Shown piece by piece: positions 1,871 through 63,458 of a stretch of 64,000 nucleotides of DNA. The position numbers and the translations under genes are program-made. A model generated the notes under the pieces. The model searched no databases and had not been told where the DNA came from. It was given only the letters and a program-made list of their open reading frames with translations. The number at the start of each line of letters is the position of its first letter. The stretch's first letter is position 1. Origin of the DNA: Sphyrna mokarran (lineage: Eukaryota); NCBI GenBank assembly GCA_024679065.1, contig JAGIQG010000016.1, forward strand, positions 1,922,001 to 1,986,000. The letters run 5' to 3'.

Positions 1871-2164
1871 ATTTCACAGATAAACCCACAATATTCCCTG
1901 CTGAAATTATTGCAGGAAAGCGTGTGAACGTAAGCTGCACCTTCAATACAACGTGCAATGGAACAGCACCTGTCTTAACCTGGGACACTCCCACTGACAT
2001 ACCTGGATCAGTCTCAAACACTGTAACTCAGCATGGTGTCACTGTGACCTATACTTCTGTTCTGACCCTGATCCCATCACCCGAACACCACGGAGACAAT
2101 CTCATCTGTAGAGTGAGATATCCATCTGTTTCATCGGAGCGGATCCTCGTACTAACTGTGTTGT
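1871..2164 (+). CDS. Siglec/MAG/CD22-like gene 1, C2-set (Siglec domain 2) exon; leader and V-set exons lie upstream of the window
   Basis: tgttag|AT..T|gtaagt, 294 bp, phase 1-1; FTDKPTIFPAEIIAGKRVNVSCTFNTTCNGTAPVLTW...LICRVRYP with the extra Cys used for the Siglec V-C2 interdomain disulfide. Confidence 0.93.
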
Positions 2165-2289
2165 GTAAGTACAGGCATCATCTATTCTACATTAGCCCGA
2201 ATGGTCTAGATTGTGCATGGGAAAATACCATAAAGGTATAACACATTGCAAAGGGATATTTGTCTTTAACTGCTTAAAAATTCACCACC

Positions 2290-2677
2290 GATGTTGCAGC
2301 ACTCCATTGGTTCAAACCCTCTGAGAGTGTGGCACTCCCTCAGTACTGACCCTCTGACTGTGCGGTACTCTCTCAGTGCTGGCCTTCTGAGAGTGTGGCA
2401 CTCCTTCAGCACTGACCCTCTGTCAGTGCGGCACTCCCTCAGCACTGACCCTCTGACAGTGCAACACTCCCTCAGCACTGACCCTCTGACAGTGCGGCAC
2501 TCCCTCAGTACTGACCCTCTGACAGTGCGGCACTCCTTCAGCACTGACCCTCTGTCAGTGCGGCACTCCCTCAGCACTGACCCTCTGACAGTGTGGCACT
2601 CCCTCAGCACTGACCCTCTGACAGTGCGGCACTCCCTCAGTACTGACCCTCTGACAGTGCGGCACTCCCTCAGTACT
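2290..2677. repeat. 33-bp minisatellite (CAGCACTGACCCTCTGACAGTGCGGCACTCCCT)n, about 11 copies
   Basis: Directly visible; gives 11-aa periodic ORFs. Confidence 0.95.
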
Positions 2678-2740
2678 TAACTGAAGTGAGTATTTGGATT
2701 TTGTACTTCGTGGTGCAATACACTACATTGATACAACAAT

Positions 2741-5183
2741 TTTAACTTTGCTAATATTGATTGGAATAGCTATAGCTCTAGCTCGTTAGAGGGGTCAGTT
2801 TTCGTACAGAGTGTGCAGGAAGGTTTTTTGACTCAGTATGTAGATAGGCCAACTAGAGGTGAGGCTACATTGGATTTGGTGCTGGGCAATGAGCCAGACC
2901 AGGTGTTAGGCTTGGAAGTTAGTGAACATTTTGGTGATAGTGACCACAATTCGGTTACGTTCACCTTAGTGATGGACAGGGATAGGCATGAAGCTGGGGG
3001 CAGTAGTTATAGCTGGGGGAAGGGTAATTATGAGGCCATCAGGAGAGAATTAGGGTGCATAGATTGGACTAGGGAACTACAGGGACTGGGAACATCTGGA
3101 ATGTGGTGCTTATTCAAGGAGCAGCTGCTGCGAGTCCTTGATAAGTATGTCCCTGTCAGGCAGGGAGGAAATGGACGAGTAAGAGAGCCTTGGTGTACGA
3201 AAAAAGTTGATTTGCTGGTTAAGAAGAAAAAGGAGGCTTATGTCAGGATGAGGCTTGAAGGCTCAGTTAGTGCAATGGATAGCTATAGATTAGCCAGGAA
3301 GGAGGTAAAAAGTGAATTGAGGAGAGCTAAGAGGGGACACGAGAAGATGTTGGCTGATAGGATTAAGGAGAATCCTAAAGCTTTCTTTCGATATGTTAAG
3401 AATAGAAGATTGGTTAGGGCAAGATTAGGGCCAGTCATAGATAGCAGTGGGAAGTTGTGCGTGGAGCCTGAAGAGATTGGCGAGGCACTGAATAAATATT
3501 TCTCTTCGGTATTCACGCAGAGTGCTGGAAATGTAGCTGTGGAGAGCACTGAGGTACAGGGTTGCAAATTGGGGAGTATTGTAGTAGATAGGGAGGATGT
3601 GTTAGAAATTCTCGAGGGTTTGAAGTTGGATAAGTCCCCTGGGCCGGACGGGATTTACCCTAGGATTCTCTGGGAGGCAAGAGAGGAGATTGCAGAGCCT
3701 CTGGCTCTGATCTTCAGGTCCTCGTTGGTTACGGGTGTGGTTCCGGAGGACTGGAGGATAGCGAATGTGGTCCCATTGTTTAAGAAGGGGAAGAGAGACC
3801 TTCCAGGGAATTATAGGCCAGTGAGTCTTACTTCTGTTGTGGGCAAGGTATTGGAGAGAATTATTAGGGATAGGATTTATAGTTATTTAGAGAGAAATGA
3901 ATTGATTGGGGATAGTCAGCATGGTTTCGTGAAGGGTAGGTCATGCCTTACTAACCTCATTGAGTTTTTTGAGAAAGTGACCAGAGAGGTGGATGGGGGT
4001 AAGGCGGTTGATGTAGTATATATGGACTTTAGTAAGGCTTTTGATAAGGTGGCCCATGGAAGACTTCTACAGAAAATGCAGATGTGTGGAATAGAGGGTG
4101 ATTTAGCTAATTGGATTAGAAATTGGCTGGCAGATAGAAGACAGAGGGTGGTGGTTGATGGGAGATTTTCATCGTGGAGTTCGGTGACGAGTGGTGTGCC
4201 TCAGGGGTCTGTTTTGGGGCCCCTGCTGTTTGTAATTTTTATAAATGATCTGGATGAGGGTATTGAGGGATGGATCAGTAAATTTGCAGATGATACTAAA
4301 GTTGGTGGTGTGGTAGATAGTGAAGAGGGGTGTTTTAGTTTACAGAGTGACTTGGACAAGTTGCAGAGCTGGGCCGAGAGGTGGCAAATGGAGTTTAATG
4401 TGGAAAAGTGTGAGGTAATGCACTTTGGCAGGAACAATAAATGTGTAGAGTATAGGGCTAATGGTAGGGCTCTTAATAGTGTTGAGGAACAGAAGGATCT
4501 TGGTGTATGTGTCAATAGATCCCTGAAAGTAGGCAGTCAAGTGGATAAAGTTGTTAAGAAGGCATATGGAGTCTTAGCTTTTATTGGTAGGGGGATTGAA
4601 TTTAGGAGCCGCAGCATCATGTTGCAGCTGTACAAAACTCTAGTGCGGCCGCACTTGGAGTATTGTGTGCAGTTCTGGTCGCCACATTATAAGAAAGATG
4701 TGGAGGCATTGGAGAGGGTACAGAGGAGGTTTACTAGGATGTTGCCTGGTATGGAGGGCAGGTCCTATGAAGAGAGGTTGAAGGATTTGAGGTTGTTTTC
4801 GTTAGAAAGGAGGCGGCTAAGGGGGGATCTTATTGAAACATATAAGATGATTAGAGGTTTGGATAGGGTGGACAGTGATAGCCTTTTTCCTAGGATGGAG
4901 AAAGCTAGCACGAGGGGACACAACTTTAAATTAAGGGGTATGAGTTATAGGACGGATATCAGAGGTAGGTTCTTTACTCAAAGAGTGATTAGGGAGTGGA
5001 ATGCCCTGCCTGCAGCTGTTGTAGATGCGCCAAGTTTGGTGGCGTTTAAGAGGTTAGTTGATAAGTATATGGATGGGAAGGGAATGGTTTAGTTAGGAGG
5101 GGCATTGCTTTTTATTTTGGTCGGCACAACATCGAAGGCCGAAGGGCCTGTTCTGTGCTGTATTGTTCTATGTTCTATGTTCT
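2741..5183 (+). mobile_element. Young 5'-truncated CR1 (HER1-like) LINE with uninterrupted ORF2 (end of endonuclease + RT)
   Basis: 759-aa open frame with LDLVL, SDHNSV, KSPGPDG, YRPVSLTS, GVPQGSVLGP, FADD; (TTCTATG)n tail; candidate TSD AATTTT at 2738-2743 and 5184-5189. Confidence 0.97.
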
Positions 5184-5257: not shown

Positions 5258-5539
5258 ATGCACCTCAGAATCTCTCAATGACTTTTCCTGGCATGATTAA
5301 CTCTTCATCAATCAATATAACTGAGGGGAACTCGACCGTGTTAATCTGCTCTGTCGAGAGCTTCCCAGCTTCTAACCTGACCTGGAGACATCATAATGTC
5401 ACAGTGAACAGAACAAGCTCCAACAATGAGCTGTGGTTGGTGATTCCTCACATTACACCCAGGGACACTGGAGACTATCAGTGTGTGGCAGAGAATGAAC
5501 ATGGAGCAATAGAGGGGTCCATCACCATCACTGTGGAAC
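5258..5539 (+). CDS. Gene 1, Ig repeat exon 1 of 4
   Basis: ttttag|ATGCACCT..GAAC|gtgagt, 282 bp, phase 1-1; ICSVESFPASNLTW...DTGDYQCVAENEHG. Confidence 0.93.
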
Positions 5540-6567: not shown

Positions 6568-6849
6568 ACATACCACGGAATGTCTCACTGAGTTCCCCTG
6601 ATATGATTAATGGTTCATGGATCAATATAATTGAGGGGAATTCGACAGGGATCATCTGCTCTGTCGAGAGCTTCCCAGCTTCTAACCTGACCTGGAGACA
6701 TCTTAATATCGCAATGAACAGAACAAGATCCAACAATGAGCTGTGGTTGGTGATTCCTCATGTTACACCCAGGGACAGCGGAGTATATCAGTGTGTGGCA
6801 GAGAATGAACATGGAGCAGTGGAGGGATCCATCACCATCACTGTGGAAC
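6568..6849 (+). CDS. Gene 1, Ig repeat exon 2 of 4
   Basis: tcttag|ACATACC..GAAC|gtgagt, 282 bp, phase 1-1, intact Ig Cys/Trp/DxGxYxC. Confidence 0.93.
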
Positions 6850-6879
6850 GTGAGTGTGCACAGAGTTCCACATCTCACA

Positions 6880-7068: not shown

Positions 7069-10000
7069 TGAGGTAGCGTGCCTCATTAGGGGGCATGTTC
7101 TTGGAAGGTCATGTGATCCATTCAGCCAATTGGAGTGGAGGGCATGAATCATGGAACTGAGCATGAATGTTCCCTGCAGTCAGGAATCTGGAGTCATGGA
7201 ATACAATTGCTTTTATGTCACCCTTTTAAATAGTCATTTTCCTCTAATAAATTGTTCATCCATTGATCTACTTGGTGGTCACCCATCTTTGAAGGTACTT
7301 CATTTGGCGACAAGGATCAATGGGAGTGCCTTCCTATTGCTGCAGAAATCGGAGAGTAGACCTCGTGTGGTAAACAAGCAGCAAACATGTTCAACAACAT
7401 GTTCAAGTATTAAAATGCCCCTTTTTGGAAAACTTGACCCATTCAACCTAGCACTGAGCAGCGGGTGCAATATGTCAAAAGCATGCATTTTATTTAAGGC
7501 CAATTAAACCTGGAAGGAGGCAAGCAGCAGACAAATATAAATAGCTGATAAGGGATCTAACTTCTCCAGATGCACCCGACACCAAAATCTTTGAGGAGCT
7601 TGTTGAATTGATTAAGGATCATTACTGTCTCAGTGATCATTCAGTGATAAAATTTAATTTGACTGCAAGAACCCCAGGGGAGTGGATAACGGCATTCATG
7701 ACACACCTAAGGCAATTGGCTTAATAAAGTTTGGGTCTTCATTCAATGACATGCTGAGAGACAGATTAGTCTGCAGCATTAATAGTCAACCATTCAGAAT
7801 GGAGGTGGATACTGGTGCCTCCCTACAGTTATAGAACATAGAACATAGAACATTACAGCACAGAACAGGCCCTTCGGCCTTTGATGTTGCGCCGACCAAT
7901 ATAAAAAGCAATGCCCCTCCAAACTAAACCATTCCCTTCTCTTCCATATACTTATCAACTAACCTCTTAAACGCCACCAAACTTGGCGCATCTACAACTG
8001 CTGCAGGCAGGGCATTCCACTCCCGAACCACCCTTTGGGTAAAGAACCTACCTCTGATATCCGTCCTATAACTATCACCCCTTAATTTAAAGCTGTGTCC
8101 CCTCGTGCTAGCTTTCTCCATCCTAGGAAAAAGGCTATCACTGTCCACCCTATCTAAACCTCTAATCATCTTATATGTTTCGATTAGGTCCCCTCTTAGC
8201 CGCCTCCTTTCTAACGAAAACAACCTCAAATCCCTCAGCCTCTCTTCATAAGACCTGCCCTCCATACCAGGCAACATCCTGGTAAACCTCCTCTGTACCC
8301 TCTCCAATGCCTCCACATCTTTCTTATAATGTGGGGACCAGAACTGCACACAATACTCCAAGTGCGGCCGCACTAGAGTTTTGTACAGTTGCAACATGAC
8401 GTTGCGGCTCCGAAATTCAATCCCCCTACCAATAAAAGCTAAGACTCCATATGCCTTCTTAACAACCTTCTCGACATGACTGCCTACTTTCAGGGATCTA
8501 TGCACATACACACCAAGATCCCTCTGTTCATCTAGACTACTAAGAATCCTACCATTTGCCCTATACTCTACACATTTATTATTTCTGCCATAGTGCATTA
8601 CCTCACACTTTTCCACATTAAACTCCATTTGCCACCTCTCGGCCCAGCTCTGCAACTTGTCCAAGTCCCTCTGCAAACTATAACACCCCTCTTCACTATC
8701 TACCACTCCACCGACTTTAGTGTCATCTGCAAATTTACTAATCCATCCTTCAATACCCTCATCCAGATCATTTATAAAAATTACAAACAGCAGGGGCCCC
8801 AAAACAGACCCCTGAGGTACACCACTTGTCACCGAACTCCACGATGAATATCTCCCATCAACCACCACCCTCTGTCTTCTATCTGCTAGCCAATTCCTAA
8901 CCCAATTAGCTAAATCACCCTCTATCCCATACATCTGCATTTTCTGCAGAAGTCTTCCATGGGCCACCTTATCAAACGCCTTACTAAAGTCCATATATAC
9001 CACATCAACCGCCTTACCCCCATCCACCTCCTTAGTCACTTTTTCAAAAAACTCAATGAGGTTAGTAAGGCACGACCTACCCTTCACAAAACCATGCTGA
9101 CTATCTCCAATCAATTCATTACTCTCTAAATAACTATAAATCCTATCCCTAATTATTCTCTCCAACACTTTGCCCACCACAGAAGTAAGACTCACTGGCC
9201 TATAATTCCCTGGAACGTCTCTCTTCCCCTTCTTGAACAAATATAGAGGAACAAATATAGAGGAACAAATGTTTTGTTATTTACAAGGAGGAGTTCAGCC
9301 CCCTACAATTAAGAAGCATGATGGCTATGCTGGTAACATATATTGGGGATGATTTGAGGATCCTAGAAGCAGCAACAATGTCCCTAATTCACTAGCAGAA
9401 GTCAGCTCAACTGCATCTAATAATAAAAGGCCAGAAGCTCGGTTTAATGGGCTGAGCTTGGCTTCACCAAGTTAAATTAAATTGGATAGAAATCTTCAAG
9501 ACCTATAATGAAAACTTCCAGAATGTTTCCAAAAAGGATCAGGAGGTGTTTGAAGGTGAATTAGGCAAGTTTCAGGGTCTAAATGCAAATATGTGGCTGG
9601 GTCCTGAGACCATGGCCAAATTTAACAGAACCTGACCTATACCCATGCCTTACATGATAAAGTTGAGTCTGAACTCGAATCTGGAAGAATTAGACATTAT
9701 TAGGCCAGTACAGTTTTCGGAGTGGCCAACACATATCATGCCAGTAGTTAAGCCAGTCAGAACTATAGGGATTTGCAAGGACTACAAATTGACATTCAAT
9801 TAAGCATCAAAATTAGATAAATATCCAATACCAAGAATTGAAGATTTGCAAGCTAAATTTGCAGGAGGTTTAACTTATACTAAACTTGATATGAGCCATG
9901 TATATCAACAATTTGAATTAGATAAGGCGTCAACAGAACTTGTTACAATCAACACTCACAAAGACTTATACCAATGTACTTGGCTACTCTTCAGGGTATC

Positions 10001-10649: not shown

Positions 10650-11054
10650 CCTATCAGGACAAGGGCAACAGCTATATGGGAACACCACTGCCAACAGATT
10701 CCCAACCAAGCTATTTACCATCTTTATTTGGAAATTTATTGGCCATTCCCTCACGGTTATTGGATTAAAATCCTTGGACTCTGTCCCCAACAACACTCTG
10801 GGTGTATCTATGCCACATGGACTACAGCAACTCAGCTTCTAACGGGGAAATTAGGGATGGGCAAGAATGCTGGTCTTACCAGCAATGTGCACATCTTGTG
10901 AAAGAATAGTGAGAAACACACATATTCAGTAGTCATTGTAAATGTGACTTTGCAACTTATAAAGAGGAAAGACATCCTGAAATGCAAATAGACATCAGAT
11001 AAGGAAAGAGGAAGCATTGTGTTTTCTCACAATAAAATCTTCCTTTGTTTTTAG

Positions 11055-11336
11055 ACATACCACGGAATCTCTCAGTGAGTTCTCCTGATATGATGAATGA
11101 TTCATGGATCAATACAACTGAGGGGAATTCTATAGTGATAATCTGCTCTGTCGAGAGCTTCCCAGCTTCTAATCTGACCTGGAGACATTTTAATGTTCCA
11201 ATAAACAGAACAAGATCCAACAACGAGCTGTGGTTGGTGATTCATCACATTACATCCAAGGACACTGGAGATTATCAGTGTGTGGCAGAGAATGAACACG
11301 GAGCAGTGGAGGGGTCCATCACCATCACTGTGGAAC
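11055..11336 (+). CDS. Gene 1, Ig repeat exon 3 of 4
   Basis: ttttag|ACATACC..GAAC|gtgagt, 282 bp, phase 1-1. Confidence 0.93.
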
Positions 11337-11912
11337 GTGAGTATACACAGACTTCAACATCACACACACAAATGGGTATACATAATTAGGCATCTGTACA
11401 CAATCCCAGATATGCAGCAAAACCTGAATAAGAGTCAGCTTGAGATGAGAAGTGACAAATAACATTTGTGCTACCCAAGTGTCAGGCAACTCCTGTCTCA
11501 AATAAGAGATTTTAACAGTCTCCCCTTGACATTCAATGCTATTTACCATCGCTGACTCCCCCAGTATCAAAATCCTGGGGGTTACCACTGACCAGAAATC
11601 TAACTGTACCTAGCCATATCAACACTACATCAACAATCCAAGTTAGAGACTGGGAGTTCTGCAGTGAATAACTCACCACCATCTTTCCAAGGACGATTAG
11701 AAATGAATAAATGCTGTCTTAGCCAGCGACACTCAACATCCTGCGAATAAATAAAAACAAATACATGGGAGGAGAGACCACTGTCAATGTTGATATTGGA
11801 TTTTGCAATGAGGAAAGATATTTTAAAATGCAGATAGCTATCAGTAGAGAGTGATGAAGCATGGACCCTTGCTGGGTACTGAGTTTGCTCACAACGAAAT
11901 CTTTGTTTTTAG

Positions 11913-12194
11913 ATTCACCACGGAATGTCACAATGACTTCTCCTAATATGATTAACTCTTCATGGATCAATATAATTGAGGGGAATTTGACAGAGATAAT
12001 CTGTTCTGTCAAGAGCTTCCCAGCTTCTAACCTGACCTGGAGACATCTTAATGTTACAATGAACAGAACAAGATCGAACAATGAGCTGTGGTTGGTGATT
12101 CCTCACATTACATCCAGGGATACTGGAGACTATCAGTGTGTGGCAGAGAATGAACATGGAGCAGTGGAGGGGTCCATCACCATCACTGTGGAGT
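11913..12194 (+). CDS. Gene 1, Ig repeat exon 4 of 4
   Basis: ttttag|ATTCACC..GAGT|gtgagt, 282 bp, phase 1-1. Confidence 0.93.
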
Positions 12195-12510
12195 GTGAGT
12201 GTACAGATACATTCTTTTGTTCTTTACCATCGCGGTTTCAGCGAAGTCAATGGCATCGTTTTAATTCTTCACCAATTTTCTTCACCAGCTTTTGCTCACC
12301 TGTTCCAACCTGAGCTGATGTGACTCAGGCTCAGATTCTGTTCCAAGGAGATCAGAAATGAGGGAGGGAATTCCAGGTTGAGGGTCTAGGCAGTTGAAAG
12401 TATGACGCTAATGGCGGAATGATGAAGTCCGGAATTGGAGGAGCGCAGAGATCTTGGAGGATTAGCGGAGGTGGGGATGAGCTGCTGATTCTCCTGTGTT
12501 CCTGTTCCAG

Positions 12511-12786
12511 ATCCCCCACGGAAAACGATGGTGTCCATCAGTGGATCCTCAGGTGGGATCAGAGAGGGAAGCAATATCACATTAAGCTGCTCCGGTGAAA
12601 GTGTGCCTCCGATATCTCATTATACCTGGTTCAGAGTCAAAGGGAACACCAGCACCCAGTTAAAGACAAGTATCCGCACTCTCTTCTTCACTCCTGTAAC
12701 ACGGGAGAATGATACAAATTTCTACTGCACAGTGAGGAATCCATTGGGTAACAGCACCTCCAATGTTACCCACCTGGATGTGCAAT
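12511..12786 (+). CDS. Gene 1, CD22-like C2/I Ig exon
   Basis: ttccag|ATCCCCC..CAAT|gtaagc, 276 bp; YPPRKTMVSI..EGSNITLSCSGESVPPISHYTWF..FYCTVRNPLG..HLDVQ. Confidence 0.92.
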
Positions 12787-12939
12787 GTAAGCATTTAACT
12801 CTATCCATCTCTTCTTAAAAACCCAACACTTCCTGTCTTAGGTCAGCTGCCTGCTGGAGTTTAGCATAACCAGCTAAAGGCACAGTTACCAATGGTGGAG
12901 TGATGACAACTGGGGGGTGTTCAAGGGATTGAAATAGAA

Positions 12940-13925
12940 GGAGCGCAGAAATCGCAGAAGGTTGTAGAGTTGAAGAAGATCACAGAGATATGGAATTCTG
13001 CAGGGAGTAGATTGGGAGGTTTGTAGAGGCTGGAGAAGATTACAGAGTAGGGTCTGGAGTAGGTTGCAGAGATAGGGAGGATGGTAGTGGCTGGAAGACG
13101 TTACAAAGATAGGGAAGAGTTGTAGGGGCCGGAGGAGGTTGCAGTGATAGAGTTGTAGGGGCTGGAGAAAATTACAGAGATAGGGAGGGTTGCAGGATCA
13201 GAAGGAGGTTACAGAGTTAGGGAGGGTTGTCGAGGCTCAAGGCAGTTACAGAGATAGGGAGGATTGTAGGAGATTATAGAGATAGGGAGGGGTGTCAGGG
13301 CTGAAGGAGATTACGTGACTGGAGAAGGTTACAGTGATAGAGATGGTTGTACGGGCTGGAGGAAATTACGGAGATAGAGAATTGTAGGAGCTGGAGGCTA
13401 CAGAGATAGAGAGAGTTGTAGGGGCTGGAGGGGGTTACAAAGATAGGGAGGGTTGTAGGGTTGAAGGAGGTTACAGAGATAGGGAGGGGTGTAGGGGCTG
13501 GAGGGTTACGGAGATAGGGAGCATCGTAGGGAGCTGGGGGAGAATGCAGAGATAGGGAGGATTGTCAGGACTGAGGGAAGATACAAAGATAGAAAAGTAG
13601 AGGTAATAGAGAGAGAGAGAGAGAGAGAGAGAGGAGTATTGTAGGGCTGACAAGGGTTTATAGAGATATGGAGGGTTGTCGTGATTGGAAGAGGTTACAG
13701 CGATCGGCAGGATTGTTGAGGCTAGATGAGCATTCGGGGATAGGGAGAATTGTTGGGGCTCAAGGTGTTTATAGAGATAGGAGGATTGTTGGGGCTGGAA
13801 AATGTTACTGGAGTAGAAAGGGTGTAGGTGCTGGAGGAGGTTTCTGAGATAAGCAAAGGTTGGAAGAGCTGGAGGGGTTATAGAAATAGGGAGAGTTGGA
13901 GGAGCTGAAGGAGATTATAGAGATG
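12940..13925. repeat. Degenerate purine/G-rich tandem repeat, ~37-bp unit (GGAGGAGGTTACAGAGATAGGGAGGGTTGTAGGGGCT), with internal (GA)n
   Basis: Recurring TTACAGAGATAGGGAGG..TTGTAGGGGCTGGAG motifs. Confidence 0.9.
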
Positions 13926-14171
13926 TCATTGTCGCTCATTGAACAACAAAGAACGATGAGTGACTAGGGCTCAGTGCGAGTTTGGACACGGGGTAGTAGA
14001 GTTTGGGATGAGTTGAAATTCCTGAATGTTTGAAGATGGGAGTCTGGACAGGAGTGTTGGGATAGTTGAGTCTGAGATATCGGAGTCACGGATGATTATT
14101 CCATGTTCAGAATCTATCTTGCGCTCTAACCCTGCTCCGAGGTTGCCTCAGTATTCTCCTTCTCTCCTCAG

Positions 14172-14465
14172 ATAAGCCTGAGATTTCCCAGGAGCCAGCC
14201 TGCACTCACACTTCACAGGGGATCACCTGTGTCTGTGTGGCCAACTCCAACCCACCTGGAGATCTCATTTGGCACCTGCCCCATGCCAACATTAGTGATA
14301 ACCAAACGCAAGGATGGTTGGTGTCGCGGCGAGTCAGAGATGGGCATCTGGTGACTGGTTCCCTGATCCTGCTAGGGCCCCAGGATGAGGAGGAAGTGAC
14401 GGCAATCTGCTCGGTTCGAAACCCGCACGGGGAAGCCATGTTCAAGATATATCTGTGGGTCAAAG
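14172..14465 (+). CDS. Gene 1, membrane-proximal Ig exon resembling MAG/Siglec-4 domain 5
   Basis: cctcag|ATAAGCC..AAAG|gtgaga, 294 bp; YKPEISQEPACTHTSQGITCVCVANSNPPGDLIWHL..ICSVRNPHG, with the C..CxC..SNP pattern of MAG D5. Confidence 0.9.
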
Positions 14466-14954
14466 GTGAGAGAATGGTTCAAGATCGATCTCTACACAGT
14501 CCCTTGATGCTTGAACTCTTGAATTCCTTCCCTTGCCCACTCCAGCTCTCTGTCTCTGTCTCTCTGTCTCTCTGTCTCTCCCCCCCTCTCCTTTAAATTG
14601 CTCTTTACAACATCTTTGACCAAGTTTTTACTCAGCTGACGTTATGAAACAAAGGCAGCACTTGGTCACATTGGAGCCAGGTTGTTCAGGAATAGTGTCT
14701 GGTAACATTTCTTCACACGAAAATGAATGGAAATCGAGACCTCACTCCCCTGAAATAAAGCCATTGCATGAAAATGAGTACAGATGATACAAACTGATGT
14801 TAAAGTGGGGAAGACATGTGTCAGGACCTAGCCTTTCATTCTCACTCCTTGACTTAATTTTAGAAGAATTTGTCTTATCATTTATAAGGATGAAGGTACA
14901 GATTCAATGTCTGTGCTTAACCATTTATGTGCTGATGACAGGCTTTCTTGTGTT

Positions 14955-15370
14955 TAGAACATAAGAACATAAAAAATAGGAGCAGGAGTAGGCCATCTAG
15001 CCCTTTGAGCCTGCTCCGCCATTCAATAAGATCATGGCTGATCTGAAGTGGATCGGTTCCACTTTCCCACCTGCGCCTCATATCCCTTAATTCCCTTACC
15101 TATCAGAAGTCTACTTATCTGTAACTTAAACATATTCAACAAGGTAGCCTCCACCACTTCAATGGGTAGAGAATTCCAGAAATTCACCACTCTCTGAGTG
15201 AAGAAGTTCCTCTTCAACTCTGCTCTAAACTGCATCCCCCTCCCCCTCTTATTTTGAGGCTGTGCCCTCTAGTTCTGGTTTTCTTTCTAAGTGGAAAGAA
15301 TCTTTCTACCTCTACTCTTTTTAGCGCCTTCATTATCTTGTAAGTCTCTATAAGATCCCCGCCTCAGCCC
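14955..15370 (-). mobile_element. CR1 LINE 3' fragment
   Basis: NFFTQRVVNFWNSLP; (AACATAAG)n tail. Confidence 0.85.
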
Positions 15371-15852
15371 ACTAATACCCAAAAAGTCTATTTAATCTCT
15401 CGAAACAAGGGTTTAAATAGGAGTTTTTTTTATCGATCAAGCACATGCGCAAACATAGACAAAATAACAAGTTGTTCAACAATACGGGGTTAAGTCTGGC
15501 AAACCTGCAAATCACTATTACTCTGGTAAACTTTCTACCTGTATAGTTTATCTTCATAGAAACACAAATAGTGACAGCCAATAAAGTTTCAGTTAATCTT
15601 TGCAGCAATTGTAGGTATCAGAAAACTCAGGAGTTGTCTTTGCATGTCCTACTTGTAATCCTGAGCATTTTCAAAAACTACAAACTGGTAATATCAGACT
15701 TCAGGACACCCACGGCAGTCATCTTAAAGCAGTCTCTCTGCTTGATTTAAACAGTCTTCTTAAAGTAGTTCAATATATATCTGATCCGATGATAAAATAA
15801 AAGATAAGCCTTCAATCCCTCGAACTTTAGAAGGTTAGCAAGTTACTTATAT

Positions 15853-16672
15853 TGTTAGGGACCAGATCAGAAATTCTAAGACATATCATGAAGTTAACGT
15901 AGACCCTAACCGTTTTTGATTTTGGTAGTGTGGCCAGCATAAGGTTGTTCGTTCCAGGTATAATTCTATGAACCGGTTGGGAAGTTTTTATTAAAAGAAA
16001 CTTTCTTTAACAACAAGGTTAAAATATAACAAAAAGAATTAACATAACTGATCAATTTAAGTACATAAACATGACAAGTTATAATTCTTAACAGCTAGCT
16101 ATCTCTATTGTTCCAATTTAAGCAATGTCTTCATAGACATACATTATTCTTCAGAAGCAGTTAGCACCACAAACAGATATGCTCACACAGATGCTAGACT
16201 TCCAGCCTTTAATCCCTTTAGACAAATACAGAATGACACCTGACTCCCAAACAGCAGCTTCCACAGACTGAGCTACCTTCAAGCAACAGAACTTCAGATA
16301 AAGAAACCAACATTCTAACATGTGCCAGTCTCCAAATCCAGACAAAGATACAGACAGAGAGCTATTCTCTCTACAGATTCCAAACAGCAACTGAGCTGGG
16401 TTTCTCTCTGTGAGCCTAGCCCTGCCTAGTCACGTCACTTTTCCTGTCAAACCGCTGATCAAACCCCAGGGGAAAACATGAACATAACAACCCTGCATTA
16501 GTCCAGATTAAAACAAGCATTTCAGCAATTGAGATCACTTATGCTGCTGCTGTAATAACTGGGGATGTCAGTTACAGACAAAGTGTCATCAAAAAATGGA
16601 AGGGACTACTAAAAAACACCTACACCAGAAACATAACACAAATACATTTCTTAAATGCACAGCATTGTCACA
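15853..16672 (-). mobile_element. Solo LTR (Gypsy-like family recurring in this window)
   Basis: TG..CA ends, 4-bp TSD ATAT (15849-15852, 16673-16676), homologous to 59273-60127. Confidence 0.75.
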
Positions 16673-16975
16673 ATATAAAAATATTAATGAGAAATGAAAT
16701 CTGATTTTAGTATGAATATCAACTCTGCTCGAAACAACTTAGCCTGGCAGACCTGTGGAGGTACTGGTGCCCAACATGGATCCTCTGAAACGGCTGCCAC
16801 TGATGTCTCCCAGCCTGTTGCACTTCTCGAACGATGTAGGGAGCTGGGAGAATCACCCCCAATATGCTGATATTGCCAGAGAATGAATATTTAAAAATTG
16901 AGTGTAATGCTTCTGAAGATATATTGGAACATCTTTCTAAAAGTGTAGTACAGTAATTAATGTTTATTTTTACAG

Positions 16976-17072
16976 ACAGAGACTTCAGTAAATGGACAGT
17001 AGTATTGCTCATGGCTGGAATCATTTTGGGTATTTTCTTGGCTGGAATCTTCAATGTTGTGTATATGAGAAA
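16976..17072 (+). CDS. Gene 1, transmembrane exon
   Basis: ttacag|AC..AA|gtaagt, 97 bp, phase 1-2; DRDFSKWTVVLLMAGIILGIFLAGIFNVVYMRK. Confidence 0.88.
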
Positions 17073-17497
17073 GTAAGTTTGATGTTAAATTGATTCTATT
17101 TTGAAATATTTAATGTATTTTCCAAAGTCTGTAATTGTTTCCCATGGGTCAGAAGTTAAATGCCTCAGCTGTAAGTGTTCTCTGTGTCCTTATTGATCAG
17201 GAGTGCATCTTTCATTATCCTGCTTCCAGCTAAATGAGAATGGGTTTTTCTGCTTTGGAAAGTGTTGCCTGAAATGGCAGCGGAAGCAAATTCAATAGGA
17301 ATATTCAAAAGGGGGAATCGGAGAAATATTCGAAGCGCCGAATTATCAGAAGAGTGGAGGAAAGAGCAAGGTGGGGGAGTTGGATTTCAGGACAGTCAAT
17401 AGTTGGGGTTCAGTTACAGTGAGCTCTGTGACTGGGCTGCACTGATTCTCAGACATATGATAACCACACTGTGATATTGTGATATTCTGTGTTACAG

Positions 17498-17579
17498 AAG
17501 AAAGACAACAACTGAGGAGGGAGCTTCAGAGACCAGTGACATTACGTTGATCTCCATTCCACGTTCTCTGAAGTACCAG
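17498..17579 (+). CDS. Gene 1, first cytoplasmic exon
   Basis: ttacag|AAGAAAG..CCAG|gtacag, 82 bp, phase 2-0; RKTTTEEGASETSDITLISIPRSLKYQ. Confidence 0.78.
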
Positions 17580-17634
17580 GTACAGGAGCAGTTTACACTT
17601 GCTTCAAAGAATTAGTAGACAACACGTGTCCCGG

Positions 17635-17931
17635 TATAGAATTCCTACAGTGCAGAAGGAGGCCAAAACCAACAACAACCTTACCCAAGCTGTATCCCCA
17701 TAACCCCATATATTTATCCTCTAATCCCCTGACACTAAGGGACAATTTAACCTGGACAATCCATGTAACCTACATATCTCTAGGAAAAAATCAGAGCATC
17801 TGAAGGAAACCCACATAGATATGGGGAGAAAGTGTAAACCCCAAATAGGCAGTCATCCAAGGCTGGAATCAAACCTGGGCCTCTGGTGCTGGGAAGCAGC
17901 AGCTGCCAATAAATGTGCCATCGTGCCGTCC
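17635..17931 (-). mobile_element. HE1-like SINE
   Basis: Homologous to 25932-26259. Confidence 0.8.
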
Positions 17932-17949
17932 ATAATCTACTCTCCCAGT

Positions 17950-18391: not shown

Positions 18392-18616
18392 GAAAAACAG
18401 CTGTTTATTGACCCCCAGAACACAGCCAGCGACACAACTAGAGAGGGGGAGACACCTGCTCCCTGGGCTCTCTCTGAAGGTTCATTGGAAGGCGATACTG
18501 GACCTGGAAACCCCGACAATCCTGACTACCTTCTCTATGGGAATCCCCAAGTCTTGAGGGTGATCGATGACGAGATTGTTCACAGAGACAAGAAGACAAA
18601 ATTCCAGTCGAACTGA
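18392..18616 (+). CDS. Gene 1, last coding exon (cytoplasmic tail)
   Basis: ctgtag|GAAAAAC..TGA, phase 0; EKQLFIDPQ...GNPDNPDYLLYGNPQVLRVIDDEIVHRDKKTKFQSN*; all ten exons join in frame. Confidence 0.75.
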   Translation, partial: EKQLFIDPQNTASDTTREGETPAPWALSEGSLEGDTGPGNPDNPDYLLYGNPQVLRVIDDEIVHRDKKTKFQSN

Positions 18617-20831: not shown

Positions 20832-21045
20832 GTTCTTTACTCAAAGAGTGATTAGGGAGTGGAATGCCCTGCCTGCAGCTGTTGTAGATGTGCCAAGTTT
20901 GGTGGCGTTTAAGAGGTTAGTTGATAAGTATATGGAAGAGAAGGGAATGGTTTAGTTAGGAGGGGCATTGCTTTTTATTTTGGTCGGCACAACATCGAAG
21001 GCCGAAGGGCCTGTTCTGTGCTGTATTGTTCTATGTTCTATGTTC
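20832..21045 (+). mobile_element. Young CR1 3' fragment
   Basis: Nearly identical to 4968-5183. Confidence 0.92.
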
Positions 21046-47337: not shown

Positions 47338-47377
47338 ATGATCAGGAAATCTTACTTCCTCCTATCACTTCTCCAAG
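47338..47377 (+). CDS. Siglec-like gene 2, signal-peptide exon
   Basis: ATG ATC AGG..CAA G|gtaata = MIRKSYFLLSLLQ, phase 1, joins V exon as ..LLQVGLSQDW; possible acceptor ttcag at 47291-47295. Confidence 0.8.
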
Positions 47378-48617: not shown

Positions 48618-48980
48618 TTGGATTATCACAGGATTGGAAAGCTGATATTCCACAAGAGGTGACAGCTCTCGAAGGTTCATGTGTACAGATTCCACGTCAT
48701 TACAGTTATCCATCACAGTTGGCAAAACAACCGCGAGTTGGAGTCTGGTTTAATAACAAGAAATGGAATGCATCATCAATAACCTTGCATTCCAAGAATA
48801 ATATTTTTGAGTCAGTACAATTCCGCCATCGGACCCGGCTGTCTGGAAACCTGAATGATGGTGACTGTTCCCTGATTATAAACAAAGTCCGATGGGAAGA
48901 TGGAGGACCTTATTTTTTCAGAGTAGAATTTCACATGGGTCCGAACCATAATTATCCTGTAACCCAGCTTCACGTTTCCA
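48618..48980 (+). CDS. Gene 2, Siglec-type V-set domain exon
   Basis: ccccag|TT..TCCA|gtaagt, 363 bp; W..P.EVTALEGSCVQIP..GVWF..FRHRTRLSGNL.DGDCSLII..EDGGPYFFRVE; essential Arg codon at 48920-48922. Confidence 0.92.
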
Positions 48981-50649: not shown

Positions 50650-50943
50650 ATTTCACAGATAAACCCACGATATTCCCTGCTGAAATTATTGCAGGAAAGC
50701 GTGTGAACATAAGCTGCGCCTTCAATACAACGTGCAATGGAACAGCACCAGTCTTAACCTGGGACACTCCCACTGACATACCTGGATCAGTCTCAAAGAC
50801 TCTAACTCAGCATGGTGTCACTCTGACCTATACTTCTGTTCTGACGCTGATCCCATCACTCAAACACCACAGACATAATCTTACCTTTAGAGTGAGATAT
50901 CCGTTTGTTTCATCAGAGCGGATCTTTACACTGACTGTACAAT
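50650..50943 (+). CDS. Gene 2, C2-set exon (canonical acceptor mutated to GG; probable start 50659 via cryptic AG)
   Basis: Colinear paralog of 1871-2164 including ~100 bp of upstream intron; donor T|gtgagt at 50944. Confidence 0.85.
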
Positions 50944-55722: not shown

Positions 55723-56004
55723 ATGCACCACAAAATCTTTCAATCACTTCTCTTGATATGATTAATGTTTCATGGATCAATATAATTGAGGGGAATTTGA
55801 CAGTGATAATCTGCTCTGTCGAGAGCTTCCCAGCTTCTAATCTGACCTGGAGACATCTTAATGTCACAATAAACAGAACAAGATCCAACAATGAGCTGTG
55901 GTTGGTGATTCCTCACGTTACATCCAGAGACAGTGGAGTCTATCAGTGTGTGGCAGAGAATGAACATGGAGCATTGGAGAGGTCCATAGCCATTACTGTG
56001 GAAA
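55723..56004 (+). CDS. Gene 2, single copy of the 282-bp Ig repeat exon
   Basis: ttttag|ATGCACC..GAAA|gtgagt, phase 1-1; near-identical to gene 1 repeat exons. Confidence 0.92.
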
Positions 56005-57984: not shown

Positions 57985-58081
57985 GTCAAGATTCCAATCA
58001 ATGGATAATAGGATTGCTTGGAGCTGGAATTACTTCGTGCATTGGATCAATTGGATTCATCATCTACAAGTTTGTGAGAAA
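57985..58081 (+). CDS. Gene 2, transmembrane exon
   Basis: ttaaag|GT..AA|gtaagt, 97 bp, same size and phase as gene 1 TM exon; SQDSNQWIIGLLGAGITSCIGSIGFIIYKFVRK. Confidence 0.85.
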
Positions 58082-58606
58082 GTAAGTGTGAAGATTTAAT
58101 TTGTTGGTTTTGATCATGTTAACTTCAAGCTTTTCTCTTTGCAGCACGAGTTTGCATTTCTATAGCACCTTACAAAACCTAAAATCTCTCACAGCCTCAG
58201 AACAGCTCTGATTTTCACTCACTGTTTAACATTTAAAACTGTAATTTGCGGTGTCAACATGGACATTCACTCTTTTTTCTTTCTCCAGTAATACCCTACC
58301 TTTCATTCTCTCTGTGTCTCTCGTTCAACTTATCTCTTATCCTATTGCATGCTGTTCAGATTCTCACATTTTGAAAGAATGCTCAGCAACATCTGCTCCT
58401 TCTCAAGACTCACCTCACCACCTGAAGTGAGCAGTGAAATAAAAAATCAGTCAATGACTACCCAGTTTCACACTGGATTCACATCACAGTGTCAGAACAT
58501 AAAGGTTTTACAGTTACAACAAAACTAAGATCCTTTGTTTCAATAAAAAGGGTTTTTCTGATTTGACTCACAGTGACACATCAACTCTTTCTAATTAAAC
58601 ACACAG

Positions 58607-58691
58607 AAGGAGCAGTACAGGAAGAGGACATTCAGCCCAAGTAGAGCAGGTCGGCAGTTACTCTCAAGGCAGGCAATTGGACAGGTCCCAA
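58607..58691 (+). CDS. Gene 2, cytoplasmic exon 1
   Basis: acacag|AAGG..CCAA|gtaatg, 85 bp, phase 2-0; RSSTGRGHSAQVEQVGSYSQGRQLDRSQ. Confidence 0.65.
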
Positions 58692-58809: not shown

Positions 58810-58911
58810 GAGAGAGGAGATTCGAAATGGGAGGTGAAATCAAACTGCATAATCCTAAAAGATCCTACTTATGAAAATTGTGTGTTTGATAGATACTTGA
58901 GTCATCAGAAG
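58810..58911 (+). CDS. Gene 2, cytoplasmic exon 2
   Basis: ttacag|GAG..AAG|gtgagt, 102 bp, phase 0-0; ERGDSKWEVKSNCIILKDPTYENCVFDRYLSHQK. Confidence 0.8.
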
Positions 58912-59272: not shown

Positions 59273-62200
59273 TGTTAGCAACCAGATCAGAAACTCCAAA
59301 GTATATTATGAAGTTAGATTAGACCCCACTCACTTTTTGATTTTAATATTACAGTGAGCAGAAGATGTTTCATTCCAGATGAGATTCTATCACCCACTCA
59401 GAAGTTTTTATTAAAACAAACTTTATTTAACAATACAGTTTAATTATAACAAAAAGAATTAGCCTAACATTTCTGCGTCAAACAACTCAACTTAAACATG
59501 AGAAGATATTATTCTTAACTGCTATTAGTTCCAATTTAAGCTGTACTTCTCATAGATATAAATTCTTCAGAATGAGTGAGCAAAAACAGAGTCTTATGTG
59601 ACCCGCTAGTCCTCCAACCTTTTATAACATCTGGACACGGAGAGACTCACCTGTCTTCTGACTCACAGACAGTAGCCTCCAGAGAAAGACCTGTCTTCAC
59701 AAGCAGCAAAATTCCAGAAAAAGAGATGGAGAAAACACTTCTTGCCTTTTGCAGACCTCTGGAGAAGAATATGTATTTTCTAGCAGGTCCCAGGCTTCAA
59801 TTTCCAGAAAGAGAGGGAAAGAGAAAAATATCCAAATCCAAAGAGCAACTGCCTGTGTGTCTTTCTCTGTAAGGCTAGCTCTGCCCATTCATGAGTTTCT
59901 CTTGTCTGAGAGACCCTTCTCTGAAACCCCAGGAAACAATCCAAAGGGTAACAAAACTGCATTAACTCAGATTAAAACAAACACCCCAATAATTAGGAGC
60001 AATTATTCATCTATATTCTTAATATGTGGACTGCTACAATTGGCACTGTAATCAGAGCTGAAGTATTAAACAGTCCCCTCACAAGAAATATGGTGCAAAT
60101 ACCTTTCCTAAAAGTACAGTAGTAACACCACATATCTTAAAAAAATCAACTATCAATATACAAAAATGGCTTCATTTTTTTTAAAAACCTCTACTTTCAT
60201 ATTATTAATACTCTACAACATATAAGCATGCAAATATAACAGTAGCAGAGTCAAATTCAGTCCTTTACTCCCACATCAAACATTCCTTCTTTTTTATCAA
60301 AGTTGCAATAAAGCATAGGCAATCACGTTCGCTCTTTCCACTTGCTCAACATCCTTTTTCAGTCCTTGATCCTGCTTTGATTCGAAGTCTGAGTTCAATT
60401 TTGTTGTCGCAACTGTAAATTAGTTTTAGTAATGTCCTTAAAGAACCAGGGACGATCAGGAGGATAAAACTTTACATTGGATGCAAACTTGCACAAACTA
60501 CTTTGGATTTGCTTTTTAATTTCCTTGACTCAGTCGAAACAGTTCTTTTGATTTTCAGAGATTCCTCTATCAGGCAGGCCAACTCCACATTCTGTTGTGA
60601 ACTGGTGTTTCAACAGTCTTTCCCACATCTCCAATCTTTCTGTTCAAAGCTACTTTACCAATTTCTTAATTGTTCTAGATCTTCATTATCATTTTCTACA
60701 TATTCTTTGGCTATAAATATATAGCAGATTGTTTTCTTTGGTGACAAAATTCATCATTCCAACAACTAGCATGGCAATTCTGTTGCTGCAAAAACCATCA
60801 TAATTTACTCATACACCAGTTATGGACAGTACTGCTTCTCTTAGTAACCACAATCTGTACAAGCTGTATAGATTCATTATTCCAGCAGTTCATTTCAAAT
60901 GATGGTATTGTTTCACCAAACTGTCTCACCTCATGCCGTTGTCCTTTACTTTCGCCTGCAGTAGTAAAATACTTCTGTTCCTCAATCTCCATTTTGCAAT
61001 CACCCATAACTGTTAATTCATCGACATTTTTCTTTTCATAGATGATGCATTGTTTTTAATAGTTGACATTCAGTTAATTCCAACAACTCAGGAACAGCTT
61101 TCAAAATAGTCAACTTTTCTTGCATTTGTCTCCGCACCTGCTCACTTTCCTGAATCAATCATTGTTCACAAACTAGTATTCCTTTTTTGCCTTCACCAGT
61201 TTTACATTGCACTCACCTGCCTTCATTCAAGTCTTCATTAACTGAGATTTGTAACTATTCACCAGCCCTTCATAGTGCTTGATTGAGACTTTCAACTGCT
61301 GCATCTCAGGCCAAGCAAATGTCAGCTTTTCCTTCCAAACCCCCCGGGACAGCTTCAGTAGATTAAATCTAGACAAATGTTGCTCAATTGGAACAGCATT
61401 TTCTACATCACGCACACTTATTTTAGTTTTTCCCAATACATTCCCACATATATCTCCATGTGAATGTAATAACTTTTTCAGCTCATTTTGATTTTCTTCT
61501 CAAAAGTAACTCAGTATGTAAATCCCAATATTTGATTACTTCCTGATTGTCCAATTCGATTTGAGAAATGTCAATTTCAGAATCATCTAGTTCTTTTTTC
61601 GCTCTGCATTGTGATCACCAACACAGCCTTCTTCTGCTTTTCATCCCTTTCAAAATACTGGTTGAGCATTTGTAAAGAGAGAAAAGTACAACATTTTGAG
61701 TCCACATGACAGACAAAAGGTCTCCTGGACTCAAAATATCAGGTCTTTCTCTCCTTACAAATGCTGCCAGACCTGCTGAGATTTTCCAGAATTTTCACTT
61801 TCGGTTTCAGATTCCAGCATCTGCAGTAATTTGCTGTATACTGTTCCAGTATATTCATATGACACACTCTGGGGATGGTCTTACCATCGCGTTGTATCAG
61901 TTTTTGGGCATGATGCAATGGTAAAGTTGGGCGTAAAGCACTTAGCATGGTTGGTGCCATTTTTTTTGCGAGTACCAGATTTCTGGCATGGTCAGCCTCT
62001 TGCTGGAAATGGGCAGGAGGCAGGTTAATATATACAGATTTATAATAATGTTATTTTACATCTGCTTAGTGAGTCTAGCATTCAATTGTCCAGGCCCCCC
62101 ACCTACTTTGTGATCTCGCCAGGAAAGTTCACATTGGAGAGGAATAGACATGCTCTCCATGAATGGAGAGCAATCAGACTTGGCCTCACTGGTTGAACCT

Positions 62201-63170
62201 GAGGCAATTGAGGCCCCGCCAGGGAAGTCAAGGGCAAGGCCAAATTGGCAGTGTCACCCTGGCACCTGAGCAATGCTCACTGGGCAGGGCTAATGGGGGC
62301 AGCAGCCAACTGCCACTTTGCAGGAATTGGTGGGGGGAAGAGAGGGGTCTGTTGCCACTCTGCAGCAATTGGTGGGCAGAGACCAACAGATCCACAATTG
62401 TCAGGGTTGGGGACCAGCAGGGGCTTTATTTTGGGCCACCGCAATTATAGGGGGGGTACTGTTTCAAGCAGTCTGCAGTAGCAGGGGCCTGACAGCTCTC
62501 TGTTTTTCAGACCCATTACTGACATTGCGTACATGCAGCATCACAAGCATGCACATGAGCAGTCTTTCCTTCTACAAGCCCCACTCACAGGCTTCTGCAA
62601 CGAGCAACAGGTTTGCTGGTATTTTTACAAGCGGAGTATTGGGTGGGGGGGTAGGGGTGGGAGGGGGACCTGAGAACATGCCCAAAAGACAGATCTAAAA
62701 CTCTCTCAGTTTCAAGTCTATTCAGCATTGAGAAAAAAATGGTAAAATTGTCCCATCTGAGTTTTACTTAGTCCTAAATAACCTCCTACTGATACACATT
62801 TTCCAGCAGGTCTCAGACTTCAATTTCCAAAAAGAGAGAGGAAAAGAGTTGCTGTTCCATTTAAATTCAAACATTAATTGCCTGCTCTCTGAAACCCTAT
62901 CTCCGACCACTCATATGCCTATCTCCTCTTGTCAAGTAGGCTAATCAAACCCCCACTATGAAACTTCAAAGAACAACTCCAAAAAACAAAACTGCATTAA
63001 CCCAAATTAAAACAAATACTCCAAAAACTCGGAGCAATTATTCTTCTACGTACTCAGCACGTGGGCTGTAAGTCATAAACAGTCAACACTGTAATCAGAG
63101 CTGAAAAATAAAATAGTCCCCTCACAAGAAACATGATACAAATACATTTCTCAAAGATACAGTATTAATA
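59273..63170 (-). mobile_element. Degenerate LTR retroelement: LTR 59273-60127, decayed internal region, partial LTR ~62790-63170
   Basis: Direct repeat 59780-60127 vs 62800-63170; same LTR family as the solo LTRs; splits the 24-bp minisatellite. Confidence 0.75.
61650..61840. mobile_element. Penelope-derived inverted-repeat fragment (related pieces at 50295-50400 and 51045-51130)
   Basis: ATTTTGAGTCCA..TGGACTCAAAAT hairpin then GCTGCCAGACCTGCTGAG.TTTTCCAG; reverse complement present at 50330-50375. Confidence 0.6.
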
Positions 63171-63341
63171 ATTAAACCCCGTTCAGTATCAATAATCAAA
63201 CTCCATATAGTATCAATAAACAAACCCTGTTCAGTATCAATAATTGATGACTGGTGTGGGTGGAATTTTCAATTTGGATCAATTATACTAAACATATATC
63301 ACTTCTGATTATCTCTCTGATCCTTTCTGTTTCTATTACAG

Positions 63342-63458
63342 AAGAAAGAAGGGAAGGTTCTGGAAATGGAATCTTATCACAGCCTCAGTCCTGATCCAGA
63401 AGATGATCTTTATGCAAACTGTGACTTTTCTCAGGATGCTATTTATGGGAATTTATAA
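63342..63458 (+). CDS. Gene 2, last coding exon with tyrosine motifs
   Basis: ttacag|AAG..TAA; KKEGKVLEMESYHSLSPDPEDDLYANCDFSQDAIYGNL*; total CDS 1380 nt (1371 with cryptic acceptor), in frame. Confidence 0.82.
   Translation, partial: KKEGKVLEMESYHSLSPDPEDDLYANCDFSQDAIYGNL

Follow-up and report, generated by a model that had tools for sequence, protein, structure and literature searches.

Siglec-type receptor genes in tandem in elasmobranchs: a likely sister family of the tetrapod CD33-related Siglecs with predicted sialic acid-binding V domains and interchangeable tails

Two receptor-like genes, both on the forward strand and surrounded by many repeats, lie in a 64,000-nucleotide stretch of the Sphyrna mokarran genome (positions 1922001-1986000 of a contig referred to here as C668; hereafter the window), which holds most of the first (gene 1) and the whole of the second (gene 2). 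Both begin with a V-set immunoglobulin (Ig) domain followed by a C2-set domain, as in Siglecs, and end in a transmembrane (TM) segment and a cytoplasmic tail. The locus thus raises the question of where these genes come from, and of whether their different tails reflect a paired-receptor system. We consider it likely that they belong to a tandem Siglec-type family of elasmobranchs that is the probable sister of the CD33-related Siglecs, with V domains predicted to bind sialic acid and with interchangeable tails.

The receptor type is already known, as are the proteins, which NCBI lists under automatic and inconsistent best-hit names: Siglec-5 to -14, CD33-like, MAG-like, CD22-like and sialoadhesin-like. 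Cao and colleagues have reportedly traced all Siglecs to one ancestral region by comparative genomics, and Bornhöfft and colleagues are said to have reviewed Siglec evolution in 2018; either work may touch on non-mammalian CD33-like genes. A published analysis that treats these proteins as one family was not found in a search that had most subscription journals outside its reach. Part of one paper mentions Siglecs once, generically (PMC8455134), and part of another describes fish as lacking CD33-related Siglecs and does not mention sharks (PMC7226832).

Traits and descent of the family

A search with the V domain of gene 1 returned 80 hits among 102 candidates, and all 80 belong to elasmobranchs (12 sharks, 7 rays or skates); Mustelus provides the closest homologue (78%), and no chimaera appears among the named hits. 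The family had been called lineage-specific in an earlier, sequence-only reading of this DNA, which holds only at the level of elasmobranchs as a whole. Its Siglec hallmarks are conserved. In a set of 141 V domains of the family, 131 of them taken from annotated proteins and 10 from the S. mokarran genome, the essential F-strand arginine is kept in 133, including those of both window genes, the E-strand cysteine in 141 and the B-strand cysteine in 139, with the B-E bond itself being predicted; the aromatic residues expected on strands A and G, Trp6 and Tyr112, are found in 134 and 127. Extra cysteines in V and C2, predicted to form an interdomain disulfide, are present in both window genes and align with the CD33 positions in a homologue. 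The V(Arg)-C2(extra Cys) layout that the earlier reading had recognized is thus found in both genes, and both exon models have the type I membrane plan of signal peptide, Ig domains and one TM segment. Given the conservation of arginine and cysteines and the established structure of Siglecs, the family V domains are predicted to bind sialic acid via the F-strand arginine.

Comparisons of individual domains are in line with this assignment. Both window V domains match the Pfam families V-set and Ig_CD22. The AlphaFold model of the gene 1 V domain (mean predicted local distance difference test score 86.5) has Siglec V-sets as its top structural matches (Siglec-10, sialoadhesin, MAG, Siglec-7 and CD33, with template modelling scores of about 0.85), and its KYSY motif aligns with an identical one in CD33. 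For the gene 2 V domain, 18 of the 20 PDB matches are Siglec sequences, and its arginine aligns with that of MAG and sialoadhesin. The linker HVSDFTDKP aligns with HVTDLTHRP of CD33.

To place the family, a quick tree was computed from 88 of 250 V+C2 units, picked by hand, and a careful mixture-model tree from 58 of those 88; among the rows dropped is P0177, an unnamed long branch that the quick tree places with the CD33-related clade. The careful tree shows two clades: the family forms one (support 99/99) and 17 tetrapod CD33-related proteins, of which 12 are named as mammal, turtle, lizard, frog or caecilian, form another (100/99). The two join at 98/89, together with two shark genes at 1.65 and 1.68 Mb of C668. 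The grouping of family and CD33-related proteins receives 90/88 in a tree of V alone, and when the two long side rows (the 1.65 and 1.68 Mb genes) are left out, the Shimodaira-Hasegawa-like approximate likelihood ratio test gives 97 in a separate quick tree. An approximately unbiased (AU) test rejects a clade of the family and CD22-like proteins (p=0.033). As a partial stand-in for canonical MAG, which the tree lacks, known structures were ranked by a profile built from 12 family proteins; CD33 comes first (122.9 bits), followed by Siglec-5 (115), Siglec-10 (106.9), Siglec-8 (104.5), MAG (102.5) and, far below, CD22 (54.8); the single protein P0042 scores 97 bits with CD33, 89.6 with MAG and 42.7 with CD22.

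On these grounds, we regard the family as probably the sister group of the tetrapod CD33-related Siglecs. The sequence-only reading had proposed a family independent of these, which is correct for the expansions: whichever founder they go back to, those of sharks and tetrapods are separate, and the shark genes and the mammalian CD33-related Siglecs (CD33, Siglec-5 to -12, -14 and -16) are reciprocally monophyletic. The founder, by contrast, was likely shared, because the V+C2 tree and the profile ranking both point to CD33-related proteins.

The two genes of the window

Gene 1 encodes, according to exon models built from the sequence, a signal peptide, V, C2, four Ig domains from 282-bp exons, two further Ig domains, a TM segment and a tail, with AG/GT splice sites throughout and a single open frame. 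The V exon and the signal exon lie outside the window, the former about 0.5 kb before its start (C668:1921132-1921497) and the latter about 11.6 kb before it (C668:1910347). Because these exons were located, gene 1 can be said to have exactly seven Ig domains after the V domain, eight in total. Its exons in the window are:

1871..2164, + strand: C2-set domain 2 with the extra Siglec cysteine (exon model)
5258..5539, + strand: 282-bp Ig exon U1 (exon model)
6568..6849, + strand: 282-bp Ig exon U2 (exon model)
11055..11336, + strand: 282-bp Ig exon U3 (exon model; contigs of related organisms show splicing from its end)
11913..12194, + strand: 282-bp Ig exon U4 (exon model and contigs of related organisms)
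12511..12786, + strand: Ig domain 7 (exon model; joint from 12786 to 14172, GT..AG, in four of four runs)
14172..14465, + strand: membrane-proximal C2 domain (the Mustelus homologue aligns to MAG domain 5)
16976..17072, + strand: TM exon of class A, 97 bp, phase 1-2, without a charged residue (exon model)
17498..17579, + strand: cytoplasmic exon 1 of class A (exon model)
18392..18616, + strand: last exon with the proximal motif LLYGNP, tyrosine codon at 18536-18538 (exon model)

Gene 2 follows a shorter plan of signal peptide, V, C2, one Ig domain, TM segment and a tail of three exons, that is, two Ig domains after the V domain and three in total, again with the frame open throughout:

47176-47264, + strand: likely 5' untranslated region (UTR) exon (from splice signals only)
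47338..47377, + strand: coding part of the signal-peptide exon, whose start is likely 47296
48618..48980, + strand: V-set exon with the essential arginine kept, 48920-48922 (exon model)
50650..50943, + strand: C2 exon with a GG acceptor; an in-frame AG follows 9 nt on, at 50657-50658
55723..56004, + strand: 282-bp Ig exon (exon model)
57985..58081, + strand: TM exon of class B, 97 bp, phase 1-2, without a charged residue (exon model)
58607..58691, + strand: cytoplasmic exon B1, with two in-frame donors at 58649 and 58691
58810..58911, + strand: cytoplasmic exon B2 with YENC, tyrosine at 58870 (exon model)
63342..63458, + strand: last exon B3 with YANC (63411) and the terminal AIYGNL (63444) (exon model)

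That these exons are spliced as modelled is supported at the level of the family by contigs from four small-share runs of two related organisms, presumably RNA, which we aligned to window positions 10900-17700. The joint from 12786 to 14172 (GT..AG) occurs in all four runs. From where a 282-bp exon ends, two of the runs continue at 12511 and one in another 282-bp exon; the contigs cover Ig exons of gene 1 only.

The domain counts of the sequence-only reading, at least seven and two after V, agree with the exon models, as does its remark that the TM exons share size and phase. The common exons are homologous as it had claimed, although 'near-identical' overstates their likeness: between the two genes, the C2 domains are 85% identical in amino acids and 90% in nucleotides, the 282-bp exons 77-83% and 88-89%, and the V domains 65% and 77%. 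It had further described TM and tail sequences as aligning poorly. While the cytoplasmic exons indeed look unrelated, the TM exons are homologous and align without a gap, with 59 of 97 nucleotides and 10 of 31 residues identical (26.5 identical nucleotides on average, and never more than 43, in 2000 shuffles). It overlooked the cysteine losses in V and C2 and the GG acceptor of gene 2, and the missing distal tyrosine motif of gene 1. The four 282-bp exons of gene 1 (U1-U4) form no clade among exons of this type, which lends no support to a recent amplification within the gene.

Both window genes are partly degenerate members of the family. In gene 1, a 15-nt in-frame deletion after 18601 has removed the distal motif TEYAQI, and the proximal LLYGNP has lost the +3 residue of an immunoreceptor tyrosine-based inhibitory motif (ITIM); since both are lost, gene 1 is likely a long-stalked class A receptor with weak or no inhibitory capacity and one YxN site. 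In gene 2, the B-strand cysteine of the V domain is replaced by arginine (CGT, 48695-48697), which is unique among the 141 family V domains, and the F-strand cysteine of the C2 domain by phenylalanine (TTT, 50886-50888), where all 64 pattern matches in annotated homologues have cysteine. Each of its first two domains has thus lost one cysteine of its intradomain disulfide, so that neither the intra-sheet B-E pair of V nor the canonical C2 disulfide is complete. Gene 2 is a class B receptor, and the chances that it is a dying copy seem evenly balanced.

Against decay speaks that private changes show no non-synonymous excess in gene 2 (9 synonymous and 20 non-synonymous, versus 11 and 23 in gene 1); relaxed selection, looked for by these counts, was not seen. 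We also considered the GG acceptor of the C2 exon as proof of a pseudogene and rejected it, as a second paralogue shares the GG, an in-frame AG follows after 9 nt in gene 2, and the annotated homologue P0034 uses this alternative acceptor.

A young family of long interspersed nuclear elements (LINEs) is present in the window, with one element in a gene 1 intron whose 786-residue open frame matches reverse transcriptase and, partially, endonuclease. The copies are 94-95% identical to this element and 98.7% to each other:

2732-5089 (+ strand), 7832-9240 (- strand), 44762-45948 (- strand) and a fragment at 20832-21045: the LINE family in the window

Such repeats could serve as seeds for unequal crossing-over in the cluster. 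A tandem repeat with a 33-bp period is frequent in the region, and a purine-rich degenerate repeat occurs in gene 1 introns (2295-2682, 17939-18296, 38980-39185 and 13009-13924 for both kinds). Rfam and tRNA scans of the window gave no match.

Tail classes and turnover of the cluster

Three classes of tail can be distinguished in the family, as read from predicted gene models, some of which are fused across loci (P0001, P0017, P0030 and P0231). Class A combines LLYANI with a distal TEYAQI, that is, an ITIM and a motif resembling the immunoreceptor tyrosine-based switch motif (ITSM). Class B carries two or three YxN motifs (YEN, YAN and a terminal YGN or YAN, the last often ITIM-like), and class C has an arginine in its TM segment (ILILGIRAVIF) followed by about ten cytoplasmic residues. 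A rough pattern sort of 88 annotated proteins assigned 35 to class A, 17 to B and 8 to C, and left 28 unsorted; a proximal ITIM-type motif is present in 33 of the 88, and there are 30 distal matches. At least two V domains are found in 26 of these proteins, some of which may be fused models. In S. mokarran, both class A motifs are retained at 2.050 and at 2.844 Mb, and five genes are of class B.

The motifs suggest what each class would do. Class A would act through SHP-1/2 recruitment to restrain activation on self sialoglycans, class B would recruit Grb2-type adaptors, and class C would couple to an adaptor with an immunoreceptor tyrosine-based activation motif and activate; the interchangeable tails would thus likely set the signal, while the V domain is predicted to bind sialic acid. 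The arginine of class C lies in the N-terminal third of the TM segment, recalling the FcR-gamma-coupled LILRA receptors and FcalphaRI.

Class C occurs in at least four named shark species according to predicted models, and in three of seven class C proteins from named species, the V domain is 93-100% identical to a class A V domain of the same species; likewise, class A and class B V domains of Heptranchias are 97.5% identical. This recalls the mammalian pairs Siglec-5/-14 and -11/-16, with their similar ectodomains, opposite-type tails, gene conversion and an activating member that is often lost, as described in part of PMC6288428. The paired-receptor logic that the sequence-only reading had suggested thus appears in the predicted models of the family, but the two window genes are no such pair, since neither has a charged TM residue or an intact ITIM and ITSM (gene 1 has LLYGNP and the deletion, gene 2 YENC, YANC and AIYGNL), and their V domains are only 65% identical.

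The cluster extends over C668 1.88-2.90 Mb, within an examined region of 1.382-2.996 Mb that contains 11 assembly gaps. With seven open-frame genes and eight broken units, it bears out the birth-and-death mode that had been proposed. Besides the two window genes, its units on C668 are:

2.050, 2.137, 2.181 (two V), 2.226 and 2.844/2.849 Mb (two V): V exons of the other genes with open V
1.902, 2.031, 2.251 and 2.895 Mb: broken V units
2.00-2.01 and 2.82 Mb: broken units without V
1.883 Mb: orphan tail
2.062 Mb: TM fragment

A further class B gene lies elsewhere:

75472257-75504327, + strand, of a chromosome-scale contig labelled C2: additional family gene

A Mustelus sequence matches it closely (support 99), tail exon B2 is present in three nearly identical copies, and the 70 kb examined did not reveal its last exon.

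The genes of the cluster vary in their numbers of V and 282-bp exons, with two to eight Ig domains per gene. Among the paralogues of this genome, the rate of synonymous substitution (dS) averages 0.47 in V, 0.25 in 282-bp Ig and 0.14 in C2 domains, and the non-synonymous rate (dN) exceeds dS in 11 of 45 C2 pairs (C2 dN/dS = 0.75), in none of the 66 Ig pairs and in none of the 45 V pairs, which gives no sign of positive selection on V. The lower dS of C2 suggests homogenisation of this domain alongside divergence of V. Taken with the trees, it points to duplication, exon shuffling and probably gene conversion, the last read from the dS contrast, as the processes that keep the C2 domains alike. 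Clustered genes of fast turnover, pseudogenes, exon shuffling, inferred conversion and, at family level, the tail with ITIM and distal motif are all shared with the mammalian CD33-related Siglecs. In contrast to these, the shark family adjoins a CD22-like gene, builds its stalks from a repeated 282-bp Ig exon, reaches four or more V domains in annotated models and has the multi-YxN tail as a third class.

Two loci have tandem V exons behind one signal exon with the arginine in both, reminiscent of Siglec-12 (C668 2180784-2181967, - strand, and 2844255-2849884, + strand). Another observation concerns tail exon B1. An element comprising it (window 58562-58691) is about 74% identical to one found 0.5-6 kb upstream of the signal exon in eight paralogous units:

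C668 1909863, 2014129, 2058002, 2152629, 2194650, 2235674, 2258790 and 2837166: upstream B1-like elements

In all six tail copies of B1, an AG is retained where the exon begins or a few bases from there; among the upstream copies, several carry indels or a stop, or have lost the acceptor. B1 looks like a 5' UTR exon that became a coding tail, or the reverse, as both directions are compatible with the sequences. In the Cetorhinus models P0037 and P0039, a B1-type exon continues into signal-exon sequence.

If the sister-group relation is true, both the lineage and its tail with ITIM and distal motif predate the split between cartilaginous and bony fish, and the paired activating forms would have arisen anew in sharks, as an independent replicate of the arms race over sialic acid-based self-recognition. 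More specifically, but with confidence just short of even, we propose that the CD33-related lineage is as old as the jawed vertebrates, and that elasmobranchs have their own paired system, with an activating form with TM arginine and a Grb2-type tail taken from a neighbour's 5' UTR exon. The value of the cluster lies in this likely deep CD33-related origin and this likely separate shark system; for shark immunology, it offers candidate leukocyte receptors of both the inhibitory and the activating kind.

Rival origins and the genomic neighbourhood

Several observations weigh against a CD33-related family with paired tails. The tree of C2 alone gives the grouping 30/87 and pulls in another shark gene; the two-V protein P0016 scores MAG first, and the V domain of gene 2 alone scores MAG and sialoadhesin above CD33-related Siglecs. 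The tree contains no canonical MAG, tetrapod CD22 or named Siglec-15. Class A tails are like those of tetrapods in motif and spacing (shark LLYANINFSKL...TEYAQI, frog LEYASLDFSKL...VEYSEI), which speaks for the grouping; a distal EYxEI-like motif, however, is no CD33 marker, because shark CD22-like proteins also end with it. As for the tails, the predicted models behind the classes are in part visibly fused, both class C units of this assembly are broken, and in four of the seven class C proteins the best V match of the same species reaches only 59-89%; no V pair has dN above dS. Finally, the neighbourhood resembles the mammalian MAG/CD22 region rather than the CD33 cluster. FXYD genes lie at C668 1.27-1.32 Mb, an LSR-family gene at 0.155 Mb, and a CD22-like gene closer by, all of which we take to be neighbours in the mammalian MAG/CD22 region. 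The mammalian CD33 cluster is presumably flanked by ETFB, CTU1 and others; matches to ETF are on contig C916 only, off C668, and searches for the CTU1 and DAP10 families, uninformative for short exons, gave no match.

The strongest rival, which we nevertheless hold to be unlikely, derives the family from a MAG-like ancestor beside CD22, fully independent of the CD33 lineage, so that the resemblance to CD33 would reflect ancestral sequence that was kept, or convergence between rapidly evolving Siglecs of the immune system. The location of the genes fits such an origin, and a clade uniting the family and MAG-like proteins to the exclusion of CD33-related ones is not rejected by the AU test (p=0.098). 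Moreover, MAG is the next-best structure, only 4-20 bits under the CD33-related ones, and shares the plan V-C2-Ig-Ig-last C2 with the family, in which the 282-bp exons and the domain next to the membrane can be aligned with MAG domains 3-5. Yet the free trees, whether by mixture model, from V alone or without the long rows, place the family with tetrapod CD33-related Siglecs, and all four CD33-related two-domain structures rank above MAG in the profile search. Also in favour of the rival, no canonical MAG was found in this genome by protein searches, family search or a degenerate pattern (0 matches), where it may be missed or lie in a gap, nor by a hidden Markov model scan of C668:1.382-2.996 Mb, where it may again lie in one of the gaps, nor among public proteins for the tree. 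One MAG candidate, on contig C871, was rejected as nectin-1.

Far less probable is that these genes, although derived from Siglecs, are no longer sialic acid receptors, but a decaying array or receptors for protein ligands kept by drift. The eight broken units beside seven open-frame genes, the two structural cysteines missing from gene 2, the distal motif missing from gene 1 and the high dN/dS of C2 would all suit this explanation; the arginine kept across sharks and rays, dN below dS in 45 of 45 V and 66 of 66 Ig pairs, the spliced family contigs in related organisms and the two genes of this genome that retain both tyrosine motifs do not.

The least probable explanation, that genes 1 and 2 are one-to-one shark orthologues of CD22 (long) and MAG (short), can draw on the CD22-like, LSR and FXYD genes of the region, the Ig_CD22 matches of both V domains and homologues automatically named 'CD22-like' or 'MAG-like', but is largely refuted for CD22, as the sequence-only reading had expected, by the AU test and by a distinct CD22-like gene 0.15-0.2 Mb away (C668:1.72-1.76 Mb) that groups with Carcharodon 'CD22-like' at 100/95, while genes 1 and 2 are recent paralogues (C2 90% identical in nucleotides) among at least 15 units, and gene 2 V is only distantly MAG-like (51.6 bits with mouse MAG), where a MAG orthologue should be a single five-Ig gene rather than one of many paralogues with three and eight Ig domains. 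MAG (Siglec-4) is a conserved single gene of myelinating cells, unlike the many fast-evolving shark paralogues with their distant V domains. CD22 (Siglec-2) resembles the family in its long Ig stalk, the YEN-type motif of class B tails and the genomic neighbourhood, but its profile score is about half that of CD33.

The CD22-like locus (C668 1722846-1761779, - strand) has two V-C2 units, with V at 1.761 and 1.746 Mb, as do the annotated models of this gene in Carcharodon, Chiloscyllium and Pristis. Further Siglec-like genes lie at C668 1.65, 1.68, 2.43 and 2.79 Mb. One Siglec-like lineage of sharks and rays has YYFYVK without the arginine (C668 2757733-2794786, - strand), with a class B last exon downstream; its homologues carry the 282-bp, TM and tail exons of the family, which suggests exon traffic between the two or fused models. 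Within the Siglec region, there are also six related V exons of another Ig family (C668 2594253-2708449), which by eye we take to be B7-like, and a V exon at C668 1464120 looks CD79a-like by eye.

Contig C865 (43.7 kb) is a second copy of C668:2.83-2.86 Mb, with 100% identity along 27.7 kb; it is probably a haplotype left unmerged in the assembly and was excluded from all counts. Small groups of Siglec-like or PILR-like V domains, some of whose genes are near-identical duplicates, are found at C668 6.46-6.72 Mb, C446 21.46 and 21.53 Mb, C960 15.17-15.19 Mb and C1215 8.0-8.4 Mb.

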